From the NCBI GenBank assembly GCA_964187785.1, contig OZ076409.1:72604001-72668000 (forward strand): DNA of 64,000 nucleotides. Direction: 5' to 3'. Source of the DNA: Amphiscolops sp. MND2022. Taxonomy: Eukaryota. Numbering within the stretch: the stretch's first letter is position 1; the number at the start of each line of letters is the position of its first letter. The translations under genes and the position numbers were made by a program. This document shows positions 1 to 64,000 of the stretch, piece after piece. The notes beneath the pieces were generated by a model, which had not been told where the DNA came from, did no database searches, and was given only the letters and a program-made list of their open reading frames with translations.

Positions 1-1809
1 AAATTAGCGCCCCCCACCGGGTTCCATACCCCGGAAAATTTTTTTCTGGCCACACGGGCGACCGTTAGGGGGTCATTTTAGGGGTAAAATTCATATTGGG
101 CCACATAACTTTTTTTCTGTTGATTTAAAACTTTGGGACCCTGCTAAAAGTTTCTTGACCGTGTTGCAGGGGCCCCGGAGGTCCAAACCAAATTTTTCTA
201 TCTTGAAGCTATCTCCAAGTACCCCCCCGCTCAAACCGTTATTTTCCCGGAAACGCAGGTTTTTGACCCGGAAGGAGTCGTCTGAGCGCGGGGTCGTTAG
301 GTGATGTATTGGGGACGGCCTTGAGACGAAGTGGGGGACATGTAGTTTGCCAACCTCAATTTACCCCCCGGACGGGAAATGACCGTTATATGAGCGGGAA
401 AAATGCCCCCCTCCACGTTTTACCGCTATTTCCGGTGTGAAGGAGTGGGAGTAGCGCGTCGGGTGCCATATATCAAAAGTAGGTTTAAACAAGGACCTAT
501 CGGAAACATGTGGTTTGGGACCCCCTGGACCAACCCGTAAGCAGGAAATGGGGCTTCCGGCCCGTTTTTTTTACGGTTAAAAACGGAAAATGGGCATTGA
601 GGGGTAAATATCTCGTGAACGCGTGGAGCTACGGTGTCCTTCACTACTACAAGGTTTCATACCCATGATATGGTGCCTTCAGGGGGGCAAACAGATTTCC
701 GCTATCTATCACCGTTACCGACTTGGCCCCCCAGCCTAACCGCTATTTGACCGGAAATGTCAGTTTTTGAGCCCTAAGGGTCGGTCCGAGCGTGGCATCG
801 TTAGGTAACTTATTGTATTACTCAATGAGACTAGTTGGGGGATATAGTTTCAGTCACCCCCCGTTACCCCTTGGGACCGGAAATGACCGTTATGTGGGTA
901 AAATTGCAATTTTTGTACTTTTTGAAGGGCAATTAGGTGCGGAAGGAGTGGTAATAGGTGCTTGGACACTATTTGAGGTAAGGGAGGACGTGAGGCGAGC
1001 ATTCAGAAATAACCGTTATGATGACCCCAAAGTCCCCCTGGTACCGTAAACGACCGGAAATGGTCGAATTTTGTGTCTATTGAGTACAAATGTTTGGTGT
1101 TTTATGAATAAAAGTACCTATTAGGTGTTTCGACGGTTTGCAGTAGTGAACATAGTCATGAAACCTTGTGGGGGGTAACGGTATATAGCACCGGAATTCC
1201 GAACCGTTGGAGACAGGATATGTTTTTTGGTCTTAAAATGTCTTTCGGCGTACTTTTGTCGACTATTATGGACTATTTTTCAAAAATAAAGTTTTTCCAT
1301 ATAGTTTCAGAGACTCCGAAACCTCAAACAACATAACCGTTACCTTATGATAGCCTTTCAAGTTGGCCTGGTGTCAACTTGGAAGGGCTATCCTTCAAAA
1401 ATCGTTAATCAAGTGTGTTTTTGGGTATGTTTTTATCATTTTAGAATCAATTAGAGCTCCAAGAAAAGTTTGCCAACGACAAAAACTATGTCGTGATGAT
1501 TCCGTTATTAGAACGATGGTTAACAAAATGTTGATAAAGTTGATTTTTTACATTTCAAATGTGTCCTAAAAGCCAGAAAACCTCTTTACCAAAAAAATGG
1601 TATTGATTGAATTGTATATAACAGGTAATAAAAGTTCAAATTGATTATTACGTTTCATTATTCAAGCTAAAAATTCATAACATAGTTTAATTAACGTCAA
1701 CGCCACATACTTTACATCAACGCCCACTGTCTGTGGGCATGCCGAGGCATGCCCTTCGACGACGTATACCAAATACATACCCAAACGACGCCCGTACATG
1801 CCGGGCTAG
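1..1809 (+). mobile_element. U0, family A short cassette (5'-truncated by window), putative non-autonomous Helitron-like/rolling-circle element
   Basis: Aligns to 1810-3779 at an offset of ~1970 bp; ends with core (1729-1767), module and CTAG. Confidence 0.6.
1735..1754. promoter_or_regulatory. p53/p63/p73-type response element GGGCATGCCG-AGGCATGCCC (representative; identical at all 26 unit ends, last copy 62526-62545)
   Basis: Two abutting decamers match RRRCWWGYYY at 19 of 20 positions, both with CATG cores and no spacer. It is also a perfect 20-bp inverted repeat apart from the 2 central bases. Confidence 0.6.
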
Positions 1810-3779
1810 GTGCGGGGGGAAACCCCATCCCTTATCTTGGAGGATTCGGGTAGGGTCCTGAATCCGAGTTCAGTGCCGCCAGCTCTCAGTAGAAATCTGG
1901 GAAATTTTTTGCGATCTCGTGATCTAACCATAGGATTTTAAAGTTGGAGCGGCCCCCACCAGATTTTCCAAAGTTATTCGCCCCCCACCGGGTTCCAGCG
2001 TGATTGAAATATTTTGTCGGGGTACACGGGCGACCGTTAGGGGTCATTTTAGGGGTAAAATTTATATCCGGTCGCATAACTTTTTTCCTGTTGGTTTAAA
2101 ACTTTGGGACCCTGCTAAAAGTTTCTTGACCGTGTTGCGGTGGCTCCGGAGGTCCGAACCAAATTTTTCTATCTTGAAGCTATCTCCAAGTACCCCCCCG
2201 CCCAAACCGTTATTTTTCCGGAAACGCCGGTTTTTGACCCGGAAGGAGTCGTCTGAGCGCGGGGTCGTTAGGTGATGTTTTGGGGACGGCCTCGAGACGA
2301 AGCGGGGGATATATAGTTTGCCGACCCCAGTTTACCCCCCGCACGGGAAATGACCGTTATATGAGCGGGAAAAATGCCCCCCTCCACGTTTTACCGCTAT
2401 TTCCGGTGTGAAGGAGTGGGAGTAGCGCGTCGGGTGCCATATATCAAAAGTAGGTTTAGACAAGGATCTATCGGAAACATGTGGTTTGGGACCCCCTGGA
2501 CCAACCCGTTAGCAGGAAATGGGGCTTCCGGCCCGTTTTTTTACGGTTAAAAACGGAAAATGGGCATTGAGGGGTAAATATCTCGTGAACGCGTGGAGCT
2601 ACGGTGTCCTTCACTACTACAAGGTTTCATACCCATGATATGGTGCCTTCAGGGGGGCAAACAGATTTCCGCTATCTATCACCGTTACGGACTTGGCCCC
2701 CCAGCCTAACCGCTAAGTGACCGGAAATGTCACTTTTTGAGCCCAAAGGGTCGGTCCCAGCCAGGGAACGTTAGGTAACTTATTGTAGTACTCATTGAGA
2801 CGAGTTGGGGGACATAGTTTCAGTCACCCCCCGTTACCCCTTGGGACCGGAAATGACCGTTATGTGAGTAAATTTGCCATTTTTGTCCTATTTGAAGGGC
2901 ATTTAGATGCGGAAGGAGTGGTAATAGGTGCTTGGACACTATATGAGGTAAGGGAGGACGTGAGGCGAGCATTCGGACATAACCGTTATGTTGACCCTAA
3001 AGTCCCCCTGGTACCGTAAACGACCGGAAATGGTCAAATTTTGTGGCTATTGGGTACAAATGTTTGGTATTTTGTAAATAAAAGTATCTATTAGGTGTTT
3101 CGACGGTTTGCAGTAGTGAACATAGTCATGAAACCTTGTGGGGGGTAACGGTATATAGCACCGGAATTCCGAACCGTTGGAGACAGGATAGGTTTTTTGG
3201 TTTTAAAATGTCTTTCGGCGTACTTTTGTCGACTATTATGGACTATTTTTAAAAATTAAAGTTTTTCCATATAGTTTCAGAGACTCCGAAACCTCAACCA
3301 ACATAACCGTTACCTTATGATAGCCTTTCAAGTTGGCCTGGTGTCAACTTGGAAGGGCTATCCTTCAAAAATCGTTAATCAAGTGTGTTTTTGGGTATGT
3401 TTTTATCATTTTAGAATCAATTAAAGCTCCAAGAAAAGTTTGCCAACGACAAAAACTATGTCGTGATGATTCCGTTATTAGAATGATGGTTAACAAAATG
3501 TTGATAAAGTTGATTTTTTACATTTCAAATGTGTCCTAAAAGCCAGAAAACCTCTTTACCAAAAAAATGGTATTGATTGAATTGTATATAACAGGTAATA
3601 AAAGTTCAAATTGATTATTACGTTTCATTATTCAAGCTAAAACTTCATAACAAAGTTTAATTAACGTCAACGCCACACACTTTACATCAACGCCCACCGT
3701 CTGTGGGCATGCCGAGGCATGCCCTTCGACGACGTATACCAAATACATACCCAAACGACGCCCGTACATCCCGGGCTAG
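1810..3779 (+). mobile_element. U1, family A short cassette (1970 bp)
   Basis: Head GTGCGGGGGGAAACCCC; GC-richer body; ends with core, ACCAAATACATACCC module and CTAG. Confidence 0.6.
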
Positions 3780-5319
3780 GTGGGCGGGGGTAATTCCCCA
3801 ACAAAAATTACGGCCGGCGGGTTGGGTCCTGCCGGACGTCAAATAGCAAAGAATATCTAGTAGGAAACGGCGACACAGAATCGCGATTTTTAAATCTAAC
3901 CACAATTTTTTGGACTTGGAGTGCATGCGGCCCTGAAATGCCCATACGAATCGAAGTTCCTGCTGACGTTAAGCGATTGAAATAATATATAAAAAGTTAT
4001 GGCCCATTTTTCACTCACATAGAAGGGTAAAATGAGGAAATTTTTAACAAAGTCGCTGATAACTCAAAATGTGTTAATTTTTGGACATTGACTGTGAAAC
4101 AAGCTTGGAACCTTCATTTCGTGGCTGTGGCATTGCACTGAACACAAAAGATGTAAAGTTTTTACATTTTTTGAAAATTCGACATTTCTGAAATTTTTTT
4201 CACTACTATCAGTACCCCATATGTCAAAAACGCTTCAGAAAAAATTTTTTATTTGCTTTAAATTGGAAACCTTGGTATCCATGGTTTCTGTCGGAACCTA
4301 CTCGCAGCCAAACACTCAACAGTTTGCATCCAATGTGAAAATAAAATTTTTTTCGGGGTCATAAGCGTTTCACAAGGATTTCTCAACTTAGTATTATTTT
4401 ACAAAATGGTCATTTTGAACACAATATTTTCATCGAGGCTTGTCGGCTATAGCCTTAATGTTCTAGAACGGTCCCACTGGCAACGTAGGAACCATTTATA
4501 GTAATGGAAAGTAATAAAAAAATATTTTCACCCGGTCTTCAGTCATTTTTCAGTCATTCGGAACTTAACTTAGAAAAATTTCGACCAAAATACCCATTTT
4601 TTGTCAGGTCGAAAATTCAAATTCAGATTTTTAAGCAAAATTATTAACTCTGACGTAACCCATGGGGCCCATAATACTCAAAACAACGATTGACACTGGT
4701 ATCAATGGCTTCAATAACATATGAGTCGCGATAAGACGTTATTTTGAGCATTACGTCTCAATTGAGGTAAAGATCTCGCAAGCCAGTGATCACAGTGAAA
4801 TGTGATTTCATCAAAAATTTACTCTTTTTTGTCAATCATTATGTGCACAGAATGCGTAGGGTGCGTTTCAGCACTATAATGAGGTTTTTCAAGGCATCGA
4901 GTTGCTCAAGGGGTGGTATGAGACATTTTTGTCCCATATACTACTGTATTTTCCAAAATTTTTAGCCCAATATCTGGAAATACAAACTTGACAAAATACT
5001 TTCAACTACTTTATTCAAAGGTTACAATATAGATGAACACTGTGGTTGATCAGAAACTTTCATCTCTTTCGTTTTCGGAAATATTTCCCTTCGCATGTGT
5101 TACATTCATAGCAGAAAAAAAAATCGAAACTGAAAAATACGCTATTTTGCTAATATAGAATCGCAATGATTGTGCCTAAAAACTCTTTAAACACTTCTAA
5201 CGCAACCTTACGCACCCAAAATGATCAATAATGCTATTCACAATGGTGACATGTGCTCTTTCTACGATCCTGGCTGGACAAGGTTTGCATATTTTTCAAG
5301 TACCTGTCAGCTAAATCTT

Positions 5320-5367
5320 GTGATAGCCTTTTCAGTTGGCCTTGTGTCAACTTGGGAAGGCTATCAC
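5320..5367 (+). other. Conserved internal ~45-nt stem-loop of short units (representative; family A copy at 1349-1392)
   Basis: GTGATAGCCTT..AGTTGGC-CTTGT-GTCAACT..AAGGCTATCAC inverted repeat, ~400 bp before CTAG in A and B units. Confidence 0.85.
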
Positions 5368-5725
5368 ATCAAAAAACCATCAACAAAAATAATTTTTGTT
5401 TATTGGATCTTACAGTCGATACTTTTTTTCGTGATTCTATACTACCGTTAGTATATTTCCTCAGGTCACCTTACGATTGCATTCAGTCTTTGATAAAAAC
5501 CTATGAACTCAAAGTCACATTTATATATTTTTTTGCCAAAAAAACATCAAAAATATCCAAAAAATATAAAATAGAGTCTTTAGCATTTTTACGTTTCAAG
5601 TTTCCGCCGTTATTAGGCCAATCAACGTCCTACAGCCACGCTCTCTGTCATACTGTACAACGCCACATAGTGTTGCGACGCTCACGGTCTGTGGGCATGC
5701 CGAGGCATGCCCTTCGACGACGTAT

Positions 5726-5764
5726 GCCGAATACCGCGGGCCTACGCCCGCGCTCCCCGGCTAG
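5726..5764 (+). other. Helitron-like 3' terminus: GC hairpin CGCGGGC-CTAC-GCCCGCG, 8 nt, CTAG (representative of 13 copies)
   Basis: An 18-nt hairpin ending 12 nt before the end of CTAG matches the canonical Helitron hairpin + CTRR geometry. Confidence 0.65.
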
Positions 5765-7757
5765 GTGCGGGGGGGAAACCCCATCCCTTATCTTGGAGGA
5801 TTCGGGTAGGGTCCTGAATCCGAGTTCAGTGCCGCCAGCTCTCAGTAGAAATCTGGGCATTTTTTTGCGATCTCGTGATCTAACCATAGGATTTTAAAGT
5901 TGGAGCGGCCCCCACCAGATTTTCCAAAGTTATTCGCCCCCCACCGGGTTCCAGCGTGATTGAAATATTTTGACGGGGTACACGGGCGACCGTTAGGGGT
6001 CATTTTGGGGGTAAAATTTATATCCGGTCGCATAACTTTTTTCCTGTTGGATTAAAACTTTGGGACCCTGCTAAAAGTTTCTTGACCGTGTTGCGGGGGC
6101 TCCGGAGGTCCAAACCAAATTTTTCTATCTTGAAGCTATCTCCAAGTACCCCCCCGCCCAAACCGTTATTTTTCCGGAAACGCAGGTTTTTGACCCGGAA
6201 GGAGTCGTCTGAGCGCGGGGTCGTTAGGTGATGTATTGGGGACGGCCTTGAGACGAAGCGGGGGATATATAGTTTGCCGACCCCAGTTTACCCCCCGGAC
6301 GGGAAATGACCGTTATATGAGCGGGAAAAATGCCCCCCTCCACGTTTTACCGCTATTTCCGGTGTGAAGGAGTGGGAGTAGCGCTTCGGGTGCCATATAT
6401 CAAAAATAAGTTTAGACAAGGACCTATCGGAAACATGTAGTTTGGGACCCCCTGGACCAACCCGTTAGCGGGAAATGGGGCTTCCGCCTCCTTTTTTTAC
6501 TGCTAAAACCGTAAAATGGGCATTGAGGGGTAAATATCTCGTGAACGCGTGGAGCAATCGTGTCCATCACTACTACAAGGTTTCATACCCATGATATGGT
6601 GCCTTCAGGGGGGCAAACAGATTTCCGCTATCTATCACCGTTACCGACTTGGCCCCCCAGCCTAACCGCTATGTGACCGGAAATGTCACTTTTTGAGCCC
6701 AAAGGGTCGGTCCCAGCCGGGGAACGTTAGGTAACTTATTGTAGTACTCAATGAGACGAGTTGGGGGATATAGTTTCAGTCAACCCCCGTTACCCCTTGG
6801 GACCGGAAATGACCGTTATGTGGGTAAATTTGCAATTTTTATACTCTTTGAAGTGTATTTAGGTGCGGAAGGAGTGGTAATAGGTGCTTGGACACTATAT
6901 GATGTAATGGAGGTCGTGAGGAGAGCATTCGGAAATAACCGTTATGTTGACCCCAAAGTCCCCCTGGTACCGTTAACGACCGGAAATGGCCAAATTTTGT
7001 GTCTATTGGGTACAAATGTTTGGTATTTTATGGATAAAAGTACCTGGAAGGTGTTTTAAAGGCCTCCAGAAGTGAACATAGTCATGAAACCTTGTGGGGG
7101 GTAACGGTATATAGCATCGGAAGTCCAAACCGTTGGTCACAGAATAGGTTTTTTGGTTTCAATATGTCTTTAGGCATAGTTTTGTGGGTTGAATCGTCAT
7201 AATATCAACTAATACGGACTTTTTTCGGAAATAAAATTTTTTCACATTAGTTTCAGGGACCTCCAATGCTTCAGTCAAAATAACCGTTACATTTTGATAG
7301 CCTTTCAAGTTGACCTGGTGTCAACTTGGAAGGGCTATCCTTCTAAAATCGTTAATCAACAGTGTTTTTGGGTAGGTATATGTTGCATTAGTACCAATTA
7401 GAGCTTCATCAACAGTTTGCCAACGGCAAAAACGATGTCGTGATAATTCCGTTATAAAAATATTAGTTAACAAATTGTTTTCAAAGTTGATTTTTTCCAT
7501 TAAAAATGTGTCCTAATGCCACCAAATTGAATAAAATAATAAATGGTATTGACTAAAACTAAATAACAATGAAAAAGAAGATCAACATTTTTATTAGGTC
7601 TCATTATGGAAGCAGAAACCTCACGTTTTAACTTAATTAACGTCAACGCCACATACTTTACATCAACGCCCACCGTCTGTGGGCATGCCGAGGCATGCCC
7701 TTCGACGACGTATACCAAACAACCTCCATATCTACACCCACCCGCGGTAGCAGCTAG
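5765..7757 (+). mobile_element. U3, family A short cassette with divergent 3' part (1993 bp)
   Basis: Near-identical to U1 until ~7045, then more diverged; different terminal module. Confidence 0.6.
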
Positions 7758-13708: not shown

Positions 13709-14520
13709 GTGGGGGGGATATATCTCCACTTTTTTTGCGACCGCGGGTAGGGTCCTGTCGGGAGCTTCTATTTACCAAGCTTACGGCGCTATATACTAGA
13801 GAAAATTTTTCCGGCACCGAACTTTTTTTTGAACCATAGGATTTGTACCATTTTTTGCATGCGGCCCTAATTTGGGCATACAAGACGAAGTTCCTGCTGA
13901 CGTTAAGCGATGGTTTCATTGTGTAACGAGATATAGCCACTTTTTGGTGCGAATTTTGAGGTATTTTTGAGAAAAATTTTACAAACAGCTCGAATGCAAA
14001 AAATTGAAAAACTTGTGACAATCGACCTATCACTGGTTTAAACCTTCGATTCTTTGCCCTAGCAATGCACTAGACCCAAAAGATCTAAAACTTTTACATT
14101 TTCCAAAAATTTGACCAAATTGACTCGGGTTTCACTACTATATGTAACCAATGTGACAAAAACACCTCAGAAAAAAATTTTTATTTGCTTAAATTTAGAA
14201 ACCTTGGTATCCATGGTTTCTGTCGGAACCTACTCGCAGCCAAACACTCAACAGTTTGCATCCAATGTGAATTTAAATTTTTTTTCGAGGTCATAGGTGT
14301 TTCACAAGGATTTCACAACTTAGTTTCATATTACAAATTGGTCATTTTCAACATCATATTTCCATCGAGGCATGTCGGATAGAGTGTTATTGCTTACGAA
14401 CGGTCCTACTGGCAACGTGTTAACCATTTATAGAAATACAAAGTTATAAAAAAATTTTTTCACCCGTTCTTCCATCATTTTTCAGACATTCGGAACTTAT
14501 CTTAGAAAAATTTCGTCTCA

Positions 14521-15700
14521 AAAACCCATTTTTTGTCAGGTCGAAAACTCAAATTCAGCTTTTTAAGCACAATTATTAACTCTGACGTAACCAGTGGGGC
14601 CCATGATACTCAAAACAACGATTGGGGTTGGTACCATTGGCTCAAATAACATATGAGTCGCGATAAGACGTTATTTTTAGCCATACGTCTCAATTGAGGT
14701 AAACATCTCGCAAGCCAGGGATCTCTGTGAAATGTGATTTCATCAAAAAGTTACCCATTTTCGCCAATTACTATGTGCACAGAGTGCGTAGGGTGAGTTT
14801 CAGCACTATAATGAGGTTTTTGAAGGATTCGGGTTGCTCAAAGGGTGGTATGAGACATTTTTTTCCCATATACTACTGTATTTTCCAAAAATTTTAGCCC
14901 ATTATCTGGAAAAACTAACTTGACAAAATACTTTCAGTTACTCTATTCGAAGCTTAGAATATAGATGAACACTGTGGTTGATCAGAAACTATTAACTATT
15001 TTGTTTTTAGAAAAAAACTGCCTTGCATGTGTTACATTAGTGGCAGGAAAAATACCAGTAGCTCCAAAAATCAAAAATTTGGACGGACAGACTTCCAATG
15101 ATGCAAAACAAAAACGTTTCAACAACTTCTGACGCCACTTTTTTTACCCAAGAGGTTCGAAAACACCATTAACAATGCTGACATTCGCAATAAATAAGAT
15201 CGAGGTCTATTTACTAACACTTAGGTTTTAAATTTTTTTCTCGGAAACCCATTATTGTCAGGTCGCAAATTCAAATTTGGTTTTGGAAGCAATACTTTTC
15301 ACTCTGAAGCAAACCGTTGGGCCCAAAATACTCAACAACAACAAAAAGACTATCACCATATGCTCTAATAACATATGAGATGCGACTGTATGTTTTTAAC
15401 ACAATAACTCTCATTCTGAAGTAAACATGTTGAAAGCCTTGAATCACAGTGAGAAGTGATTTCATCAAAAACTATTTCTTTTTCGTCAATCACTAAATAC
15501 ACAGAACCCGTTGTGTTAGTTTCAGTAGTGAAATGAGGTTCTACCGTAATATCGGTTGCTCAAGGTGTTGTATAAGGCAAAAACTTCCTCTTTTCTACTA
15601 ACTTCTTCAAATATTTCAACCCTTTGTCACACGAAGTTAATATTCAAAATCTCTTTGAATTGTTTCTTAAGGTTGTGGTGAATTGTTAGAACAATTACTA
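14521..15700 (+). repeat. Old ~722-bp-period direct duplication inside long cassette U7 (also present in U11, U12 and U19)
   Basis: CCCATTTTTTGTCAGGTCG (~14525) recurs as CCCATTATTGTCAGGTCG (~15248); GTGATTTCATCAAAAA at ~14734 and ~15456; GGTTGCTCAA at ~14832 and ~15554. Confidence 0.85.
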
Positions 15701-15946
15701 TGATCGAAGAATGCTAGTATTGGTGTTTGGACCATGTCCGGATGAACAAATCGCAAAATCAAGAAAAAATTGTTTCCTTTTTTGGTTATTTTGGCAGTAC
15801 TAAAAATGTTAGCTGATAAATAATTTTTTCGAAGGCACCATTGGATTCCGCTCAAAAAGTTGATTATAAGACATGTGTAATAACCCCGTATCTTTTCAAT
15901 TTAAATAAATTTAAAAAGCAAACTTTTTGACGAAAATCCTAAAAAT

Positions 15947-17284
15947 CATACCATTTCCTAAAAAATTTCAAATGCACTCCATTTGACGTATAAGAATAGC
16001 ACAGAAAACTATCATATACCGATCAACTTTACTCCCATTGTAGACTATTAGAATTTTGTTTTGATTGAATTTTGAAGAATATTAAAAAATTTTGAACCCT
16101 CCAAAAATGGACCAAAATTACACGAAAAAATTGACCTTAAAATTTTAAAATGTCAAAAAATCATCAAAACCACAACTTCTTGGGGTTCTATCAACTCCAC
16201 GTGGTCCACAGAGTACGCTAAAACAGGTTTTACCCGTTTTTGAGCAATATGTGAAAAAGCCGACATTTTTGGGAAAGAAAAACATACCATTTCCTAAAAA
16301 ATTTCAAATGCACGCCATTTGCCGTATGAGAATAGCACAGAAAACTATCACATACCGATCAACTCTACTTTCATTGTAGATGATTAGAAGTTAGTTTAAA
16401 TGAAAATTAGACGGATAATAAAAAAATATAAATCCTCCAAAAGTGGGCAAAAATTACACGAAAAAATTGTCCTTAAAATATTAAAATGTCCAAAAATCAT
16501 CAAAACCACAGCTTCTTGGGGTTCTATCAACTCCACATGGTCCACAGAGTACGCTAAAACAGGTTTTACACGTTTTTGAGCAATATGTGGAAAAGCCGAC
16601 ATTTTTGGGAAAGAAAAACATAACATTTCCTAAAAAAATTCACATGCACGCCATTTGGCGTATAAGAATAGCACAGAAAACTATCATATACCGATCAACT
16701 CTACTCCTATTGTAGATTATTAGAACTTTGTTTTGAATGAATTTTGAAGGATAATAAAAAATTTTGAACCCTCCGAAAATGGGCTAAAATTACACGAAAA
16801 AAGTGACCTTAAAATTTTAAAATGTCTAAAAATCATCAAAACCACAGCTTCTTGAGGTTCTATCAACTCCACATGGCCCACAGAGTATGCCAAACCAGGT
16901 TTTGCGCGTTTTTGAGCAAAATTTAGGAAAGCCGATTTTTTTGAGGAAGAAAAACATATCATTTCCTAAAAAACTTCAAATGCACGCCATTTGGCGTATA
17001 ACAATAGCACAGAAAACTATCACATACCAATCAACTCTACTCTTTTTGTAGATTACCAGAAGTTTGCTTAGAATAACTTTTGATGAATATTTATAAATTT
17101 TAAACCCTCCTAATATGGGCCAAAATCACACGGAAAAATTGACCCTAAGTATTAAAATGTCAGATATTCATCAAAACCCCAGCTTCTTGGGGTTCTATCA
17201 TTTCCATATGACTTTCAGTGTATACCAAACAAGTTATTAACATTGGGCGATAATTAAAAAGACCAATTTTATTCTGAAGAAAAC
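15947..17284 (+). repeat. Internal tandem repeat, 4 x 336 bp (U7)
   Basis: CATACCATTTCCTAAAAA-type starts at 15947, 16283, 16619 and 16955; the last copy is degenerate. Confidence 0.95.
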
Positions 17285-17501
17285 CATAATATGTTCAATA
17301 TAAGAAGTGAATCATTCCACATATATACCCTGTCTAATATTCTAAATTAGCAAAAAAATATATACTTGATGTTTTTTGAATGTGAGCTTCATAAAAGGTT
17401 GAGATGTGATAATACGTAAATGGAATCCAAGTTTCATCGAAAAGTCAATGGAATACGTCCAATCAACTTCAATCTTAACAATTCGATAACAAAAAACACT
17501 T

Positions 17502-17543
17502 AAGTACATTCCATCTCCCTATCGGGGAGATGAGAATGTACTT
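17502..17543 (+). other. Internal ~40-nt stem-loop of long units (also 28239-28279, 32996-33038, 49698-49738)
   Basis: AAGTACATTC-CATCTCCC..GGGAGATG-A-GAATGTACTT inverted repeat. Confidence 0.85.
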
Positions 17544-18476
17544 TTCTAAAACTAAAAACTTAGATCTTTCTATCTTTTGTAACACTTACTGTAACAGCTG
17601 AAATGATGAAAGGATAATTATTCTTCTAATAACTTCAAGATTTTTTGCTTCACCTTTTATTTCTGCAGAACAAAACCATAAGACATACATATTTTTCGCA
17701 GTTAAGTTCGACTGTATTACCCAGTGAACAAAGGTATGACAGGAAGAATACAAGTTGTCTCAAAACTTTCCCGCCTTCCAAAATCATGAAACGTCTACAC
17801 AACCAAGATAGTAAAGGAATGAATGTGGAATGCATCATTTTAGTTAAAATAAATAACGTGTAGAACTTACCTTTATCTGAAGATGATGTTGATTTATGAT
17901 CTTTAGAGGATAGTTCAATTTTTGACCATAATAGTGCGAAACTAATTATTATATGAATAATGGCGTGGAAAGCGTTCAGAAATTGCAGTATTTTCGATTC
18001 GAGCATGTATGCGTGGGTTCCTTTGGTGGCAGTAGCTTAGTGTACATGATGGAAGTTTTCGATCTATTATGATAAAATTTACTCACAAGTCTTTGTTTTT
18101 CCTATTTTTTTATGCCATTAAGTACATTCATTCTATCCCCTTCTCTGGGAATGTACGTTTGCCAAATGACTGTCATCCAAATTTTGCATTCGCGAAGAGT
18201 TTAAATACATAAACACGTCTTTAGCGTTTCCAAATCACAACCGATTAACATTTTTAAAAATTTTTTTTATGAAAATTGATAATTTGTTTTGATTTTGGTA
18301 TCTTCTACTTTTATCATCCATCATAACAAGCACGTTACCATGTCTCTCGCTTGTCTTCATTTTACAACGACACATAGCGTTCCGACTCCCACCGTCTGTG
18401 GGCATGCCGAGGCATGCCCTTCGACGACGTATGCCAACTACTTTTTATATCTACACCCGATTGCGGTAGCGGCTAG

Positions 18477-20457
18477 GTGGGCGGGGGTAATTCCCCTTCA
18501 AAAAATTCGGCCGGCGGGTTGGGTCCTGCCGGACGTCAAATAGCAGAAAATACCTATTAGGAAACGGCGACACAAAACGGCGATTTTTAAATCTAACCAC
18601 AATTTTTTGGACTTGGAGTGCATGCGGCCCTGAAATGCCCATACGAATCGAAGTTCCTGCTGACGTTAAGCGATTGAAATAATATATAAAAAGTTATGGC
18701 CCATTTTTGGGTCACCGAGAAGGGCAAAATGAGGAAAATTTTAACTAAGTCGCTGATAACTCAAAATGTGTTAATTTTTGGACATTGACTGTGAAACAAG
18801 CTTGGAACCTTCATTTCGTGGCTGTGGCATTGCACTGAACACAAAAGATGTAAAGTTTTCACATTTTTTGAAAATTCGACATTTTTGAATTTTTTTTCAC
18901 TAGTATCAGCACCCCATATGTCAAAAACGCCTCAGAAAAAAATTTTTATCTGCTTTAAATTGGAAACCTTGGTATCCATGGTTTCTGTCGGAACCTACTC
19001 GCAGCCAAACACCCAACAGTTTGCATCCAATGTGAAAATAAAAATTTTTTCTGGGTCATAAGCGTTTCACAAGGATTTCTCAACTTAGTATTAATTTACA
19101 AAATGGTCATTTTGAACACAAAATTTTCATCGAGGCTTGTCGGCTATAGGCTTAATGTTCTAGAACGGTCCCACTGGCAACGTAGGAACCATTTATAGTA
19201 ATTGAAAGTTATAAAAAAATTTTTCACCCGTTCTTCAGTCATTTTTCAGACATTCGGAACTTATCTTAGAAAAATTTCGTCTCAAACACCCATTTTTTGA
19301 CAGGTCGAAAAATCAAATTAGGATTTTTAAGCAAAATTATTAACTCTGACGTAACCCATGGGGCCCATGATACTCAAAACAACGATTGACACTGGTATCA
19401 ATGGCTCCAATAACATATGAGTCGCGATAAGACGTTATTTTGAGCAATACGTCTCAATTGAGGTAAACATCTCGCAAGCCTGGGATCACAGTGAAATGTA
19501 AATTCATCAAAAATTTACTCATTTTTGTCAATCACTATGTGCACAGAGTGCGTAGGGTGAGTTCCAGCACTATAATGAGGTTTTTGAAGGCATCGGGTTG
19601 CTCTAGGGGTGGTATGAGACATTTTTTTCTATATACTACTGTATTTTCCAAAACTTTTAGCCCATTATCTGGAAAAACTAACTTGACAAAATACTTTCAA
19701 TGATTTTATTCAAAGGCTACAATGTAGATGAACCCAGTGGTTGATCAGAAACTTTCATCTCTTTCGTTTTCCGAAATATTTCCCTTCGCATGTGTTACAT
19801 TTGTAGCAGAAAAAAAATCGAAACTGAAAAATACGCTATTTTGCTAATATAGAATCGCAATGATTGTGCCTAAAAACTCTTTAAACACTTCTAACGCGAC
19901 CTTACGCACCCAAAATGATCAAAAATGCTATTCACAATGGTGACATGTGCTCTTTCAACGATCCTGACTGAACAATTTTCGCAAATTATTCAAGTACCTG
20001 TTAACTGAATCTCGTGATAGCCTTTTAAGTTGGCCTTGTGTCAACTTGGGAAGGCTATCACATCAAAAAATTTTCAACAAAAATACTTTTTGTTTATTGG
20101 AAATGACAGTCGATATATAATTTCGTGATTCTATACTACCGTTAGTACCTTCCATTAAGTTACCTGATGATTGCTTTCAGTCTTTGATAAATACCTATGA
20201 ACTCGAAGTCTTATTTATAAATTTTGTGCTAAAAATAACCATCAAAACTATCCAAATTATTTAAAATTGAGTCTTTACCGTTTTTGTTTTTCTTTTTCTA
20301 CTGTTATTAGGCTCATCAACTTCCTACAGCCACGCTCTCTGTCATTAGTACAACGCCACATAGTGTTGCGACGTGCACAGTCTGTGGGCATGCCGAGGCA
20401 TGCCCTTCGACGACGTATGCCGAATACCGCGGGCCTACGCCCGCGCTCCCCGGCTAG
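18477..20457 (+). mobile_element. U8, family B short cassette (1981 bp)
   Basis: Bounded by CTAG|GTG junctions; body matches U6. Confidence 0.6.
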
Positions 20458-45901: not shown

Positions 45902-48900
45902 GTGGGCGGGGGTAATTCCCCAACAAAAAAATCGGCCGGCGGGTCGGGTCCTGCCGGCCGTCCAAAATCAAAATCCTCCTAGTAGAAAACGGCATGTCAA
46001 ACGAGCTATTTTTTTATTTAACCATTAGAATTTCACCATTTTTTGCATGCGGCCCTGAAATGGCCATACGAGACGAAGTTCCTGCTGACGTTTTGCGATG
46101 TAAATGTTTTATAAAAAGTTATGGCCGATTTGTCATTCACCTAGAAGGGTAAAATGAGGAAAATTTTAACAAAGTCGCTGATAACTCAAAATGTGTTAAT
46201 TTTTGGACTTTGACTGTGAAACAAGCTTGGAACCTTCATTTCGTGGCTGTGGCATTGCACTGAACGCAAAAGATGTAAAGTTTTTACATTTTTTGAAAAT
46301 TTGACATTTTTGAAATTTCTTTCACTACTATCAGTATCATATATGTCAAAAACACCTCAGAAAAAAAATTTTATTTGCTTTAACTTGGAAACCTTGGTAT
46401 CCATGGTTTCTGTCGGAACCTACTCGCAACCAAACAACCAACAGTTTGCATCCAATGTGAAAATAAAAACTTTTTCTGGGTCATAAGCGTTTCACAAGGA
46501 TTTCTCAACTTAGTATTAATTTACAAAATGGTCATTTTGAACACAATATTTTCATCGAGGCTTGTCGGCTATAGCCTTAATGTTCTAGAACGGTCCCACT
46601 GGCAACGTAGGAACCATTTATAGTAATAGAAAGTTTAAAAAAATATATTTTCACCCTGTCTTCAGTCATTTTTCAGTCATTCGGAACTTAACTTAGAAAA
46701 ATTTCGACCAAAATACCCATTTTTTGACAGATCGAAAATTCAAATTCAACTTTTTAAGCAAAATTATTAACTCTGACGTAACCAGTGGGGCTCATGATAC
46801 TCAAAAACACGATTGGGACTGGTACCAATGGCTCCAATATCATATGAGCCGCGATAAGACGTTATTTTGAGCAATACGTCTCAATTGAGGGAAACATCTC
46901 GCAAGCCTGGGATCACAGTTAAAAGTGATTTCGTCAAAAATTTACTCTTTTTCGTCTATCACTATGTACACAGAGTGCGTAGGGTGAGTTTCAGCACTAT
47001 AATGCGGTTTTTGAAGGAATCGGTCTGCTCAAGGGGTGGTATGAGACATTTTTTTTTGCATGTAGTACTATATTTCCTAAAACTTTTAGCCCATTATCTC
47101 GAAAAGCTCACTTCGCAAATTACTTTCAGTTACTCTATTCGAAGCTTAGAATATATATGAACACTGTGGTTGATCAGAAACTCTTGACTATTTTGTTTTT
47201 GGAAAAAAACTGCCTTGCATGTGTTACATTAGTGGCAGGAAAAATACCAGTAGCTCCAAAAATCACAATTTTGGACGGACAGACCTGCAATGATGCAAAG
47301 CAAAAACGTTTCAACAACTTCTGGCGCCACTTTTTTTACCCAAGAGGTTCGAAATTACTATTAACAATGCTGACATTCGCTATATATAAGATCGAGGACA
47401 ATTTACTAACACTTAGGTTATACATTTATATCTGAGAAACCATTCTTTGTCAGGTCGCAATTTTAAATTTAGTTTGGGAAGCAATACTTTTCACTCTGAA
47501 GCAAACCGTTGGGCCCAAATTACTCAAAAACTACAAAAAGACTGTCACCAAATGCCCTAATAGCATATGAGATTCGACCGTATGTTTTTAACACAAAAAC
47601 TCTCATCCGAAGTAAACATGTTGAAAGCCTTGAATCACCGTGAGAAATGATTTCATCAAAAATATCCCTTTTTCGTCAATCTTTATCTACACAGAACACG
47701 TTGTGTCATTTTCAGCCGTGAAATGAGCTTCTACCGTAATATGGGTTGCTCAAGGTGTTGTATAAGACAAAAACTTCCTCTTTTCTACTATCTTCTTCAA
47801 ATATTTCAACCCTTTGTCACAAGAAGTTAATATTCAAAATCTCTTTGAAATGTTTCTTTAGGTTGGTGTGAAGTGTTAGAACAATAATTAAGATCGAAGA
47901 ATGATAGTATTGGTGTTTGGACCATGTCCGGATGAACAAATTGCAAAATCATGAAAAATTTCTTACCATTTTTGGTCATTTTGTCAGTACTAAAAATGTT
48001 AGCTGAAAAAGAATTTTTTTGATGGCACCATTGGATTCCTCTCAAAAAGTTAGCTATATGAACTGTGTAATAACCCCGTATCTTTTCAATTTAAATAATT
48101 TTAAAAAGCAAACTTTTTTGACTAAAATCCTAAAAATCATACCATTTCCTAAAAAATTTCAAATGCCCCCCATTCGACGTATAAGAATAGCACAGAAAAC
48201 TATCACATACCGATCGACTCTACTTCCATTGTAGATTACCAGAATTTTGTTTAGAACAATTTTTGACGGATGCAAAAAAATTTAAACCCTCCAAAAAAGG
48301 GCCAAAATTACACGAAAAAATTGACCTTAAAATTTTAAAATGTCGAAAAATCATCAAAACCACAGCTTCTTGGGGTTCTATCAACTCCACGTGGTCCACA
48401 GAGTATGTTAAAACAAGTTTTACCCGTATTTGAGCAATATGTGAAAAAGCCGACTTTTTTGGGAATGAAAAACATACCATTTCCTAAAAAATTTCAAACG
48501 CACCCCATTTGACGTATAAGAATAGCACAGAAAACTATCACATACCGATCGACTCTACTTCCATTGTAGGTTACCAGAATCTTGTTTAGAACATTTGTTG
48601 ACGGATGCAAAAAAAAATAAAACCCTCCAAAAATGGGCCAAAATTACACGAAAAAATTGACCTTAAATTTTTAAAATGTCAAAAAATCATCAAAACCACA
48701 GCTTCTTGGGGTTCTATCAACTCCACGTGGTCCACAGAGTATGCTAAAACAGGTTTTACCTGTTTCTGAGCTATATGTGAAAAAACCGACATTTTGGGGA
48801 AGAAAAACATACCATTTCCTAAAAAATTTCAAATGCACGCCATTTGCCGTATGAGAATAGCACAGAAAACTATCACATACCGATCAACTCTACTTCTATT

Positions 48901-50664
48901 GTAGATTATCAGATTTTTGTTTAGAACAAATTTTTATGGATATAAAAAATTTTTAAACCCTCCAAAAATGAGCCAAAATAACACGAAAAAATGGACCCTA
49001 AATTTTTAAAATGTCAAAAAATTATCCAAACCACAGCTTCTTGGGGTTCTATCAGCTCCACGTGGTCCACAGAGTATGCTAAAACAGGTTTTGCCCGTTT
49101 TTGAGCAGTATATGAAAAAGCCGACATTTTTGGGGAAGAAAAACATACCATTTCCTAAATAATTTCAAATGCAGGCAATTTGCCGTATGAGAGTAGCACA
49201 GAAAACTATCACACACCGATCAACTCTACTTCTTTTGTAGATTATCAGAATTATGTTTAGAGTAAAGTTTTATGGATATGAAAAATTTTTATACCCTCCA
49301 AAAATGGGCCAAAATGACACGAAAAAATTGACCTCAAATTTTTAAAATGTCAAAAAATTATCCAAACCACAGCGTCTTGGCGTTCTATCAACTCCAAATG
49401 ACCTTCAGAGTATACCAAACCAGGTATTGCCAATCTTTTGAGCAATATTTAAAAACACCGACTATTTGGCAAGAACACCATAATATGTTCCATATAAGAA
49501 GTGAATCATTCCACATATATACCCGGTCTAATATTTTCAAATTAGCGATAACATTAATACATGATGTTTTTTGAAAGTGAGCTTCATAAGAGGTTGAGAT
49601 GTAATAATACGTAAATGGACCCTAAGTTTCATTGAAATCTCAATGGAATACGTCCAATCAACTTCAATCCTAACTATTATATAACAAGAAACACTTGAGT
49701 ACATTCCATCTCCCCATCGGGGGAGATGAGAATGTACTTTTCAAAAGCCAAAATTTTCGAATTTTAAATCTTTTGTAACATTGTATGTAACTGTTGAAAC
49801 GATGAACGAATAAAAATGCTTCTAGTACCTTCATCAATTTTTGCTTCAGCTCCTATTTCTGCAGAACAAAACCAAAAGACACACTTACAGCAGTTAAGTT
49901 CGATTGTATAACTCAGTGAATAAAGGTATGACTGAGGAAGTTCACAAGTTGTTTCAAAAGTTTCCGGCCTTCCAAAATCATGAAACGTCCACACAACCAA
50001 GATAGCAAGTGAAAGAATGCTGAATGCACCTTATTAGATGAGATAAATAACGTGTGGAACTTGCCATTATCTTAAGATGACGTTGATTTATGATCTTTTA
50101 AGGATAGTTCGATATGTGACCACAATAGTGGAAAACTTATTACTATTTGAAGAACACCGTGGAAAGCGTTCAGAAAGGACAGTATATTTGTTTCGAGCAT
50201 GCATGCGTGTGTTCCTTTGGTGACGTTAGCTTAGTGTACATGACGGAGGTATTCGAGAGATTATGATAGAGTTTACTCACAAGTCTTTGTTTTTTAAAAC
50301 TTTCTATGCCGTTGAGTACATTCGTAAGGTACATCCATCCCCTTCTCTGGGAATGTACGTTTGCCAAATGACTGTCATCCAAAATTCGTAATCCGGACGA
50401 GTTTAACTACATAAACATGTGATGAGCGTTTTCTATTCAAAACCGAATAACTTTTTTTTTCTCGAAAATGATGATGGTTTTGATTTTGATGTCTTCTACT
50501 TTTATCATCATGCAAACGACCTTACCATGTCTCTCTTCTGTCGTCATTTGTACAACGCCACATAGCGTTCCGACGCCCACCGTCTGTGGGCATGCCGAGG
50601 CATGCCCTTCGACGACGTATGCCAAATGAGCCATACCCGCACTCTGGAGTGCGGTAGCGGCTAG
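45902..50664 (+). mobile_element. U19, long cassette (4763 bp), recent copy of U11
   Basis: Colinear with U11 at an offset of 21459 bp; the ORF-track peptides are nearly all identical. Confidence 0.6.
48138..49478 (+). repeat. Internal tandem repeat, 4 x ~336 bp (U19)
   Basis: Same as 26679-28019 shifted by 21459 bp. Confidence 0.95.
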
Positions 50665-58622: not shown

Positions 58623-60609
58623 GTGGGCGGGGGTAATTCCCCAACAAAAAAATCGGCCGGCGGGTCGGGTCCTGCCGGCCGTCCAAAATCAAAATCCTCC
58701 TAGTAGAAAACGGCATGTCAAACGAGCTATTTTTTTATTTAACCATACGAATTTCACCATTTTTTGCATGCGGCCCTGAAATGGCCATACGAGACGAAGT
58801 TCCTGCTGACGTTTTGCGATGTAAATGTTTTATAAAAAGTTATGGCCGATTTGTCATTCACCTAGAAGGGTAAAATGAGGAAAATTTTAACAAAGTCGCT
58901 GATAACTCAAAATGTGGTAATTTTTGGACTTTGACTGTGAAACAAGCTTGGAACCTTCATTTCGTGGCTGGGGCATTGGACTGAACACAAAAGATGTAAA
59001 GTTTTTACGTTTTTTGAAAATTCGACATTTTTGAAATTTTTTTCACTACTATCAGTACCCCATATGTCAAAAACACCTCAGAAAAATATTTTTATTTGCT
59101 TTAAATTGGAAACCTTGGTATCCATGGTTTCTGTCGGAACCTACTCGCAGCCAAACACCCAACAGTTTGCATCCAATGTGAAAATAAAAATTTTTTCGGG
59201 GTCATAAGCGTTTCACAAGGATTTCTCAACTTAGTATTAATTTACAAAATGGTCATTTTGAACATAATATTTTCATCGAGGCTTGTCGGCTATAGCCTTA
59301 ATGTTCTAGAACGGTCCCACTGGCAACGTAGCAACCATTTATAGTAATATAAAAGGTTAAAAAATTTTTTTCACCCGGTCTTCAGTCATTTTTCAGACAT
59401 TCGGAACATAACTTAGAAAATTTTCGACCCAAATACCCATTTTTTGTCAGGTCGAAAATTAAAATTCAGCTATTAAAGCAAAATTATTTACTCTGACGTA
59501 ACCAGTGGGGCCCATGATACTCAAAAACACCATTGGCACTGGTACCAATGGCTCCAATAACATATGAGTCGCGATAAGACGTTATTTTGAGCAATACGTC
59601 TCAATTGAGGTAAAGATCTCGCAAGCCAGCGATCACTGTGAAATGTAAATTCATTAAAAATTTACTCATTTTCGTCAATCACCATGTGCACAGAGTGCGT
59701 AGGGTGAGTTCCAGCACTATAATGAGGTTTTTGAAGGCATCGGGTTGCTCAAGGGGTGGTATGAGACATTTTTTTCCTATATACTACTGTATTTTCCAAA
59801 ATTTTTAGCCCAATATCTGGAAATACAAACTTGACAAAATACTTTCAACTACTTTATTCAAAGGTTACAATATAGATGAACACTGTGGTTGATCAGAAAC
59901 TTTCATCTCTTTCGTTTTCCGAAATATTTCCCTTCACATGTGTTATATTTTTAGCAGAATAAAAAATCGAAACTGAAATATACGCTATTTTGCTAATATA
60001 GAATCGCAATGATTGTGCCTAAAAACTCTTTAAACACTTCTAACGCAACCTTACGCACCCGAAATGATCGAAAATGCTATTCACAATTGTGACATGTGCT
60101 CTTTCTACGATCCTGGCTGGACAAGGTTTGCATATTTTTCAAGTACCTGTCTGCTGAATCTTGTGATAGCCTTTTAAGTTGGCCTTGTGTCAACTTGGGA
60201 AGGCTATCACTTCAAACAACCATCAACAAAAATAATTTTTGTTTATTGGATATTACAGTTGATACCTTTTTTCGTGATTCTATATTACCGTTAGTATATT
60301 CCATGAGGTCACCTTACGATTGCATTGAGACTTTGATAAAAACCTATGAACTCAAAGTCACATTTATATATTTTTTTGCCCAAAAAAATCATCAAAAACA
60401 TCTATAATATATAAAATAGAGTCTTTAACATTTTTACGTTTCAAGTTTCTGCCGTTATTAAGCCAATCAACTTCCTACAGCCACGCTCTCTGTCATTCTG
60501 TACAACGCCACATAGTGTTGCGACGTGCACGGTCTGTGGGCATGCCGAGGCATGCCCTTCGACGACGTATGCCGAATACCGCGGGCCTACGCCCGCGCTC
60601 CCCGGCTAG
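58623..60609 (+). mobile_element. U24, mosaic family B short cassette (1987 bp)
   Basis: First half matches U14/U22; second half matches the U18 tail. Confidence 0.6.
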
Positions 60610-62597: not shown

Positions 62598-64000
62598 GTG
62601 GGCGGGGGTAATTCCCCAACAAAAAAATCGGCCGGCGGGTCGGGTCCTGCCGGCCGTCCAAAATCAAAATCCTCCTAGTAGAAAACGGCATGTCAAACGA
62701 GCTATTTTTTTATTTAACCATACGAATTTCACCATTTTTTGCATGCCGCCCTGAAATGGCCATACGAGACGAAGTTCCTGCTGACGTTTTGCGATGTAAA
62801 TGTTTTATAAAAAGTTATGGCCGATTTGTCATTCACCTAGAAGGGTAAAATGAGGAAAATTTCAACAAAGTCGCTGATAACTCAAATTGTGTTAATTTTT
62901 GGACTTTGACTGTGAAACAAGCTTGGAACCTTCATTTCGTGGCTGGGGCATTGGACTGAACACAAAAGATGTAAAGTTTTTACGTTTTTTGAAAATTCGA
63001 CATTTTTGAAATTTTTTTCACTACTATCAGTACCCCATATGTCAAAAACACCTAAGAAAAAAATTTTGATTTGCTTTAAATTGGAAACCTTGGTATCCAT
63101 GGTTTCTGTCGGAACCTACTCGCAGCCAAACACCCAACAGTTTGCATCCAATGTGAAAATAAAATTTTTTTCGGGGTCATAAGCGTTTCACAAGGATTTC
63201 TCAACTTAGTATTAATTTACAAAATGGTCATTTTGAACATAATATTTTCATCGAGGCTTGTCGGCTATAGCCTTAATGTTCTAGAACGGTCCCACTGGCA
63301 ACGTAGCAACCATTTATAGTAATATAAAAGGTTAAAAAAATTTTTTCACCCGGTCTTCAGTCATTTTTCAGACATTCGGAGCATAACTTAGAAAATTTTC
63401 GACCCAAATACCCATTTTTTGTCAGGTCGAAAATTAAAATTCAGCTATTGAAGCAAAATTATTTACTCTGACGTAACCAGTGGGGCCCATGATACTCAAA
63501 AACACCATTGGCACTGGTACCAATGGCTCCAATAACATATGAGTCGCGATAAGACGTTATTTTGAGCAATACGTCTCAATTGAGGTAAAGATCTCGCAAG
63601 CCAGCGATCACTGTGAAATGTGATTTCATCAAAAATTTACTCATTTTTGTCAATAACTATGTGCACAGAGTGCGTAGGGTGAGTTCCAGCACTATAATGA
63701 GGTTTTTGAAGGCATCGGGTTGCTCAAGGGGTGGTATGAGACATTTTTTTTCCTATATACTACTGTGTTTTCCAAAACTTGTAGCCCATTATCAGGAAAA
63801 AATAATTTGACAAAATACTTTCAACTACTTTATTCAAAGGTTACAAAATAGATGAACACTGTGGTTGATCAGAAACTTTCATCTCTTTCGTTTTCCGAAA
63901 TAATTCCCTTCGAATGTGTTACATTTGTAGCAGGAAAAAAAACTGAAACTAAAAAATACGCGATTTTGCTGAGATAGAATCACAATGGTTGCGCCTAAAA
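62598..64000 (+). mobile_element. U26, family B cassette, head B3 (3'-truncated by window)
   Basis: Matches the first ~1.4 kb of U14/U22. Confidence 0.6.

Follow-up and report, generated by a model that had tools for sequence, protein, structure and literature searches.

The systems closest to the locus described here are Helitrons and the insertion sequence IS91. Helitrons are described as inserting at dinucleotides and as having no preference for unique sequences (PMC8788227). The Helraiser transposon is nicked at its 5′ end, which it requires although it can do without its 3′ end, and it forms circles joined precisely head to tail at CTAG|TC (PMC4778049). Helitron-like elements (HLEs) are defined as HLE1 and HLE2, with others unclassified, and one moss HLE2 family carries a GIY-YIG domain (PMC11417382). 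Self-insertion near 5′ ends occurs on a small scale among FoHeli elements, where one FoHeli4 was found 2 bp upstream of a second copy, along with a single tandem of three (PMC5148889), and is occasional in a further study (PMC13342296). Extended stretches of units derived from Helitrons, in some cases alongside autonomous copies, have been described, among them the holo-clusters of Meloidogyne (PMC12628747, PMC13404089); truncated tandem arrays and transposon dimers formed by insertion preference are also reported (PMC12628747). IS91 targets 5′-CTTG and is cleaved at its own end at 5′-CTCG, with T fixed at position 2; it bears subterminal palindromes at both ends, forms single-stranded circles and makes no target duplication (PMC13181058). 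Here we analyse a 64-kb window (the whole stretch of DNA examined, C1:72604001–72668000, contig OZ076409.1) of the 1.07-Gb assembly GCA_964187785.1 from Amphiscolops sp. MND2022. Positions 1–64000 hold, on the + strand, an uninterrupted head-to-tail array of 25 complete and two partial non-autonomous Helitron-like elements. We consider it likely that these derive from a divergent Helitron-like lineage in which one nick sequence serves as donor start, donor end and target.

Arrangement of units and junctions

The sequence GCTAGGTG has 26 matches on the + strand of the window and none on the − strand. At each of them the 3′ tetranucleotide of one element, CTAG, meets the 5′ trinucleotide of the next, GTG, the first junction lying at 1806–1812 and the CTAG ends falling at 1809, 3779, 5764, 13708, 18476, 29205 and onward to 62597. 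As a preliminary description of this DNA had reported, none of the 26 GCTAG|GTG junctions carries a spacer, duplication, truncation or inversion. The complete units measure 1970–1998 bp (n = 21) or 4763–4768 bp (n = 4). Two belong to family A (1810–3779 and 5765–7757, with a partial copy at 1–1809), 19 to family B (1981–1998 bp, exemplified by 3780–5764), and four are long units (13709–18476, 24443–29205, 29206–33971 and 45902–50664). The only sequence common to A and B units is a subterminal block of about 80 bp together with a hairpin of about 60 bp.

The four copies of subfamily B2 (20458–22446 and the units starting at 39932, 50665 and 60610) are 98.4–98.9% identical to one another and each has different neighbours; the neighbours also differ for the long units at 24443 and 45902, which are 99.96% identical, and the long unit at 29206 has a twin on C2 at 99.3%. 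Nine unit pairs in the window reach at least 97% identity, and no upstream or downstream neighbour pair of these exceeds 93.2%, so that the window contains no higher-order period (0/9 near-identical pairs with a common neighbour). Both the scattered B2 copies and the lack of a higher-order repeat had been remarked on in the preliminary description. Inside a unit the 5′ type predicts the 3′ type 2–4.8 kb away (p = 1e-4), whereas prediction is lost across the junction (p = 0.78). The distance correlation (rho) is likewise 0.52 between both ends of one unit, 2 kb apart, and −0.03 across the junction, as measured on 19 B–B junctions in the window and flanking DNA. When all regions are pooled, rho across the junction rises to 0.38, against 0.41–0.88 at internal splits. 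We rejected this value as true linkage on a within-region permutation (p = 0.43); the pooled signal arises because family make-up differs by region.

We catalogued 151 elements from the fetched regions, which form 36 clusters, a few of them parsing merges. Among 130 adjacent pairs, 51 have less than 25% of their length in common, 28 show partial relatedness, 50 belong to the same family and a single pair is at least 97% identical, which argues against concatemers and against satellite homogenisation. A twin of at least 97% identity in another fetched region exists for 48 of the 136 short elements.

Termini, target site and enzyme

All 151 catalogued elements start with GTG, which is partly by construction of the parser, and their 3′ ends are CTAG in 126 and CTGG in 22; solos located from the 3′ end also start with GTG, with one GTA. 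The 3′ end is formed by a terminal hairpin and CTAG (3759–3779), the hairpin sequence varying by subfamily. A subterminal palindrome (3705–3724) lies about 55–75 nt from the 3′ end in A, B and long units and is absent from several other families. The last 90 nt fold with z scores of −3.1 to −5.0 in all three ends tested. Following one 3′-end class, the next three bases are NNG 2,013 times (about 96%) and NNH 73 times, and 99 of the first 100 NNG cases listed are GTG. When the 73 NNH flanks are scored by eye, base 1 is G in 33, A in 30, T in 10 and C in none, and base 2 is T in 69. B-type starts preceded by a base other than G were not found.

Copies outside the arrays define the bare target. 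Fourteen of 40 extended flank loci were resolved to the 5′ end, and with a solo in a long terminal repeat (LTR) retrotransposon the solos total 12, of which 11 have CTNG as their left flank; five of six with CTYG on the left retain CTAG on the right, and a search for CTYG left edges returned one solo. For the solo in the LTR retrotransposon, all 11 paralogues show a clean empty site, CTTG|GT. On C8 a nested copy occupies CTTG|GTA; it retains its own CTAG, and five other members of the family have the site intact. Target-site duplication is absent at the empty sites and ambiguous in one solo. Solo copies with empty sites had been predicted in advance, and 12 of the former and two clean examples of the latter exist. 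From these flanks the bare target is CTNG^DT, cut after CTA or CTAG. Units of the window contain 38 such sites on the plus and 142 on the minus strand, seven of the latter being perfect CTAGGTG, and all are unused; because these 180 internal matches are ignored, CTNG^DT alone cannot explain the arrays. Two insertions 13 nt apart in one host unit, at C8:25691450 and 25692785 and about 170 nt from its 3′ end, are near-seam mis-targeting, the seam being the CTAG|GTG junction between units. The LTR-retrotransposon family that hosts the solo is young and abundant (40 scored matches at 99–100%, 420 candidates).

Autonomous members lie within the same arrays, and not elsewhere as had first been supposed. 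A Pfam search gave weak Helitron_like_N matches in frames of about 2,376 aa within arrays. Among the 150 matches listed when the Rep region served as query (29–100% identity), about 67 have an unbroken frame of at least 2,100 aa, and 36 lie within C1:70.56–76.46 Mb, all on the + strand. The fetched elements encoding a Rep–helicase (RepHel) are 12–27 kb long, and 15 of 15 begin with GTG, end with CT(A/G)G and adjoin a GTG start or an element end on both sides, which bears out the expectation of longer elements with the same ends and an HUH Rep/helicase. Their proteins (2,177–2,820 aa, with PIF1) all carry the HUH (HxH) and Y-x3-Y motifs, and a Walker A motif is recognised by pattern in 13 of 15. 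The 2,373-aa protein matches Helitron_like_N (PF14214, E = 5e-10) and PIF1 (PF05970, E = 6e-11), with a C-terminal GIY-YIG match (E = 4e-4) slightly below the Pfam cut-off. A match to Helraiser chain 7lcc (E = 2e-6) covers the helicase part only. The ratio of nonsynonymous to synonymous substitution is 0.07 and 0.22 in two RepHel pairs, a third pair being saturated. No Pfam match to a tyrosine recombinase was found in six element proteins (E ≤ 0.1), a search that covered these proteins and not the rest of the genome. The proposal of non-autonomous units driven by a rolling-circle enzyme is supported, and its integron-like framing is replaced by an HUH RepHel.

Judged by sequence identity, B and long units derive from a 27-kb element and A units from a 20-kb element. 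The first 1.34 kb of B units is 82–87% identical, and the last 90–160 bp 80–92% identical, to the 27.0-kb autonomous element at C2:103487519–103514562; the same element (27,044 bp) is 86% identical to the first 3.5 kb of the long unit at 24443. On the 27,044-bp element these matches fall in its first 1.3–3.5 kb and its last 90–160 bp. The first 1.1–1.2 kb or so of A units matches the 5′ part of a 20.2-kb autonomous element (20,218 bp) at C2:102950869 at 77–80%.

Most autonomous elements contain a second open reading frame (ORF), predicted with moderate confidence to encode an oligonucleotide-binding (OB)-fold protein. Its product resembles OB-fold single-stranded DNA-binding proteins (atlas 0.90–0.93, low recognition), and a fold from five sequences reaches a predicted local distance difference test score (pLDDT) of 59 with an RPA/OB match at E = 2e-4, compared with pLDDT 31 from a single sequence. 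In the 13.7-kb autonomous element a 206-aa third ORF (L019:7359–7979, −) has no Pfam match; its N-terminal motif presumably recalls SGNH-type hydrolases. In three related families the RepHel frame stops before GIY-YIG or in mid-helicase at lengths that recur in several copies (2207, 2180 and 1694 aa), which suggests introns rather than decay.

In all families the 5′ ends carry a stem-loop (3810–3839 in the first complete B unit) whose apex, GGG(T/G)AGGGNCC, is near-invariant and whose outer stem varies in sequence but is self-complementary. Of 45 distinct 5′ ends, 44 have the motif, nearly always as a hairpin apex. Across 39 families, the arms pair with their own partner at −8.35 kcal/mol and with swapped partners at −5.87 kcal/mol (0 of 10,000 permutations). 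A model built from the hairpin gives four matches (E 7e-5 to 0.017) in 369 kb of metagenome sequence from 55 loci. They represent three distinct elements, all four are upstream of a RepHel and on the same strand, and metagenome contigs have at most one each. We infer that the stem-loop is the recognition element of RepHel. One subfamily, here termed the pioneer, accounts for five of six young solos and is the 3′-most unit in four of four small arrays with a resolved young 3′ edge; it is 5′-most in one of five arrays and makes up six of 50 internal copies. This distribution suggests that pioneer founders sit 3′ and that arrays grow mainly upstream.

Genome-wide, a 30-mer with the subterminal palindrome has 4,066 exact matches, compared with 0 for a control 30-mer. 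The array hosting the window spans roughly C1:70.46–76.46 Mb, about 6 Mb, over which continuity was not followed base by base. Array sizes run from solos and three-unit clusters up to this one, and their distribution among chromosomes is uneven: C1 holds about 6 Mb, the end of C2 about 1.9 Mb and a region near the beginning of C3 about 1.4 Mb, besides many small arrays. RepHel copies change strand once per array at C2:102.0–103.9 Mb and C3:2.4–3.8 Mb, by inversion or scaffolding. An orientation switch in the array at C1:23.98 Mb is placed at an N gap and was treated as scaffolding. At C1:72444504 (−; locus L091) a rare opposite-strand element end adjoins the 5′ end of a unit in the large array. 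Families that end in CTGG and have no palindrome are grouped together with the autonomous partners that encode their 2,800-aa proteins, and this sorting of arrays into domains hints at target preference at the level of the family.

Further features of the window lie inside the units. A long hairpin about 450 nt from the 3′ end (3319–3361, with its B counterpart at about 5319–5368) is common to A and B units, which are otherwise unrelated; it has z scores of −4.1 and −7.1 and is possibly a second-strand origin or packaging signal. The long unit at 13709 contains a 336-bp tandem repeat of about 3.8 copies (15942–17233). No protein gene is present in the window, where eight stop-to-stop frames reach at least 120 aa and the longest is at most 215 aa. 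An Rfam scan of window positions 1–30000 returned no match at E ≤ 1, ruling out an array of RNA genes over that range.

Proposed growth of the arrays and alternative explanations

Our model builds on the observed termini, target consensus, enzyme content and arrangement. The CTAG|GTG junction would be nick site, circle junction and preferred target at once, with the cut falling behind CTA or CTAG. On the pattern of Helraiser and IS91, RepHel would bind the 5′ hairpin, nick CTAG^GTG and peel off one strand; termination at the 3′ hairpin and CTAG would close a circle with a CTAG|GTG junction, and this circle would be joined to a target resembling its own junction. A genomic seam would present the tetranucleotide together with the 5′ hairpin of the resident unit, and would therefore far out-compete bare CTNG^DT. 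Every insertion would leave two seams, so that arrays would feed themselves while keeping one orientation and admitting every family that has the common 5′ signal. Arrays would be founded by a pioneer subfamily of permissive behaviour and would then grow mainly upstream, with homologous recombination in units and occasional two-unit moves superimposed. A target that equals the circle junction, following the logic of IS91 and not of an integron, is our best model.

A number of points weigh against this account or narrow it. The circles, the binding and the order of steps are reconstructed, and seam insertion is read from the arrangement of units, whose order is that of the assembly. Many B units are internal mosaics that change nearest relative along their length (58623, 43904 and 33972, for example); the chimeric unit at 58623–60609 resembles 35956/54651 for its first 1 kb or so, then 43904, and at its end 56640. 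Recombination inside units is thus common, and the units are not wholly discrete. The two-unit segment at 13709–20457 has a counterpart on C3 at 99.0%/99.1%, chosen from the best matches, and with the mosaic B units it indicates that further processes are also at work. Of the earlier picture, in which discrete units are placed singly at a fixed terminus of a self-targeting array, the self-targeting and the single placement at a fixed terminus are supported; internal integrity is not, and single placement has at least one exception in the C1/C3 block. As for the enzyme, GIY-YIG looks intact in most RepHels and degenerate in three, and lies outside the main frame in three. In the 5′ hairpin a unit's own arm is the best partner in only eight of 39 cases, and the consensus fold keeps four pairs with little covariation. 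The polarity sample is small, and a young 3′ edge within the large array (L093) comes from another family. Among the flank loci, the 26 of 40 without a resolved 5′ end are old or outside the element library. One solo has no CTNG on its left, and the sixth CTYG solo has CTTG at both ends, either a variant end or a short duplication.

Exchange or conversion of DNA between arrays at CTAG|GTG, by RepHel or by host repair of its nicks and with single units or blocks moving in the absence of a free circle, would predict the same loss of linkage at the junction, and both the mosaic units and the two-unit block common to C1 and C3 at 99% fit such seam-specific recombination. We nevertheless regard it as unlikely: the clean empty sites of solo and nested insertions call for genuine integration into non-element DNA, arrays of three elements at unique sites contain unlike families, and common blocks are rare, none of the nine near-identical window pairs having a shared neighbour. 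We give still less weight to the idea that only a short CTNG^DT preference is intrinsic and that clustering results from chromatin or local hopping together with selection against other insertions. The short consensus does suffice for solos, and rare insertions within units and regional differences in family make-up agree with it, but the window leaves 180 CTNG-DT sites outside the junctions unused and has seams at all 26 of its boundaries, selection would need to purge nearly all insertions into non-autonomous units, and near-identical twins lie on different chromosomes.

The window is after all a tandem array of about 2-kb units in a genome where 50 of 130 adjacent catalogued pairs join members of the same family, rolling-circle amplification has been described as a source of tandem Helitron arrays (PMC12628747), and one orientation switch falls at an N gap. 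An ordinary satellite or rolling-circle concatemer, shaped by unequal crossing-over and then divergence, or an assembly artefact, would account for these observations. Against this, near-identity is confined to one adjacent pair and 51 pairs share little of their length, coding elements of 12–27 kb whose Reps are 29–100% identical are interleaved at the same junction, and the window shows no higher-order period; we hold an origin of this kind to be highly improbable. Targeted insertion at seams remains the explanation we prefer. Tandem Helitron arrays are usually explained as rolling-circle concatemers, and insertion at an element's own seam would be another route, one leading to heterogeneous satellite-like arrays without a higher-order repeat. 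It would explain how many transposon lineages can be maintained while sparing genes, and points to a possible eukaryotic integrase that is site-specific and takes large cargo. On a bolder reading, taken up below, the arrays could be a safe harbour, perhaps recruited as centromere or small-RNA loci, and would offer a natural landing pad for precise, repeated, duplication-free insertion of 1–27 kb of cargo in eukaryotes. How RepHel chooses and joins its target is directly testable, because the target is a defined sequence of about 80 nt, present in thousands of natural instances, and numerous enzymes are intact.

Relation to known elements

Of the 696 cluster representatives (50% clustering) that the Rep core recovers at E ≤ 0.001, 154 reach E ≤ 1e-30. 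GIY-YIG is present in all 16 long relatives scanned. DUF6570 and the AP endonuclease are absent from these 16 and from the two array RepHels scanned, one of them partial, whereas DUF6570 occurs in three of four dispersed controls from the same genome. The relatives P0017, P0088 and P0110 add OTU or Ulp1 (Peptidase_C48) protease domains to the RepHel–GIY-YIG architecture. Two quick Rep trees split the array and external GIY-YIG RepHels from the HLE1- and HLE2-type copies of this genome, with Shimodaira–Hasegawa-like approximate likelihood ratio supports of 98 and 100; they have few references, relatives picked by likeness to the query and a long-branch warning, and four near-duplicates were dropped in one. 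Locus L223, labelled HLE1-like in one tree, carries the HLE2-type motif. It is possible, at somewhat below an even chance, that the array elements and the 154 representatives belong to a third major Helitron lineage, distinct from HLE1 and HLE2 and with GIY-YIG on its RepHel, combining a structure- and sequence-specific integrase for its own circle junction with self-assembling, one-orientation megabase loci that archive dozens of deeply diverged intact transposases. The clade may already be present, unnamed, in Repbase or among the unclassified elements of HELIANO. A full-text literature search, with most subscription papers outside its coverage, found no description of multi-family, seam-targeted Helitron arrays.

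The array elements resemble HLE1 and Helraiser in their HUH Rep and PIF1, the OB-fold ORF, a 3′ hairpin followed by a CTRR-type end, the absence of target-site duplication and the presence of non-autonomous deletion derivatives. HLE1 has a TC 5′ end and an A^T target, whereas the array elements have GTG and CTNG^DT, a 5′ hairpin and a C-terminal GIY-YIG, and their Rep falls outside the HLE1 copies sampled. With HLE2 (Helitron2/Helentron, FoHeli, proto-Helentron) they share the context of motif 2 (EFQ...H-x-H-x-x-x-W), which is nearer to the HLE2 copies of this genome, and an OTU domain in some relatives of the array RepHels. HLE2 differs in its T^T target, inverted repeats and DUF6570 or AP endonuclease, none of which the array elements have; the longest inverted match between the ends of 148 elements is 5–9 nt, no better than in cross-pairs, so that subterminal inverted repeats are not seen in this set. 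Self-insertion is occasional in HLE2, whereas here seam insertion would be general among thousands of copies from dozens of families. The same genome also contains dispersed HLE1-type and DUF6570-bearing HLE2-type Helitrons with long open frames.

Known tandem Helitron arrays are made up of truncated and decayed copies, many 5′ ends going with one 3′ end, or of Helitrons interleaved with satellite, whereas the units here are complete, their neighbours usually differ and no satellite lies between them. Tandem or centromeric Helitron arrays were also reportedly described by Xiong et al. in 2016 and Dias et al. in 2016, as related by papers citing them. IS91 is about 1.8 kb long and is not known to carry a fused helicase. 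It resembles the array elements in having an HUH transposase, and their CTNG target resembles their own CT(A/G)G terminus as its target does. A small IS91-type TnpA without helicase was not encountered among the array proteins, which are set apart by their size and PIF1 helicase, not by a TnpA alignment. IS91 is moreover prokaryotic, and multi-family seam arrays do not figure in the available part of its description (PMC13181058). An integron cassette array depends on a tyrosine recombinase acting on attC/attI, whereas the enzyme here is an HUH RepHel, and the co-duplication of neighbours and homogenisation of a satellite with higher-order repeats are not seen. The array system works like a Helitron with an IS91-style target logic and is not an integron.

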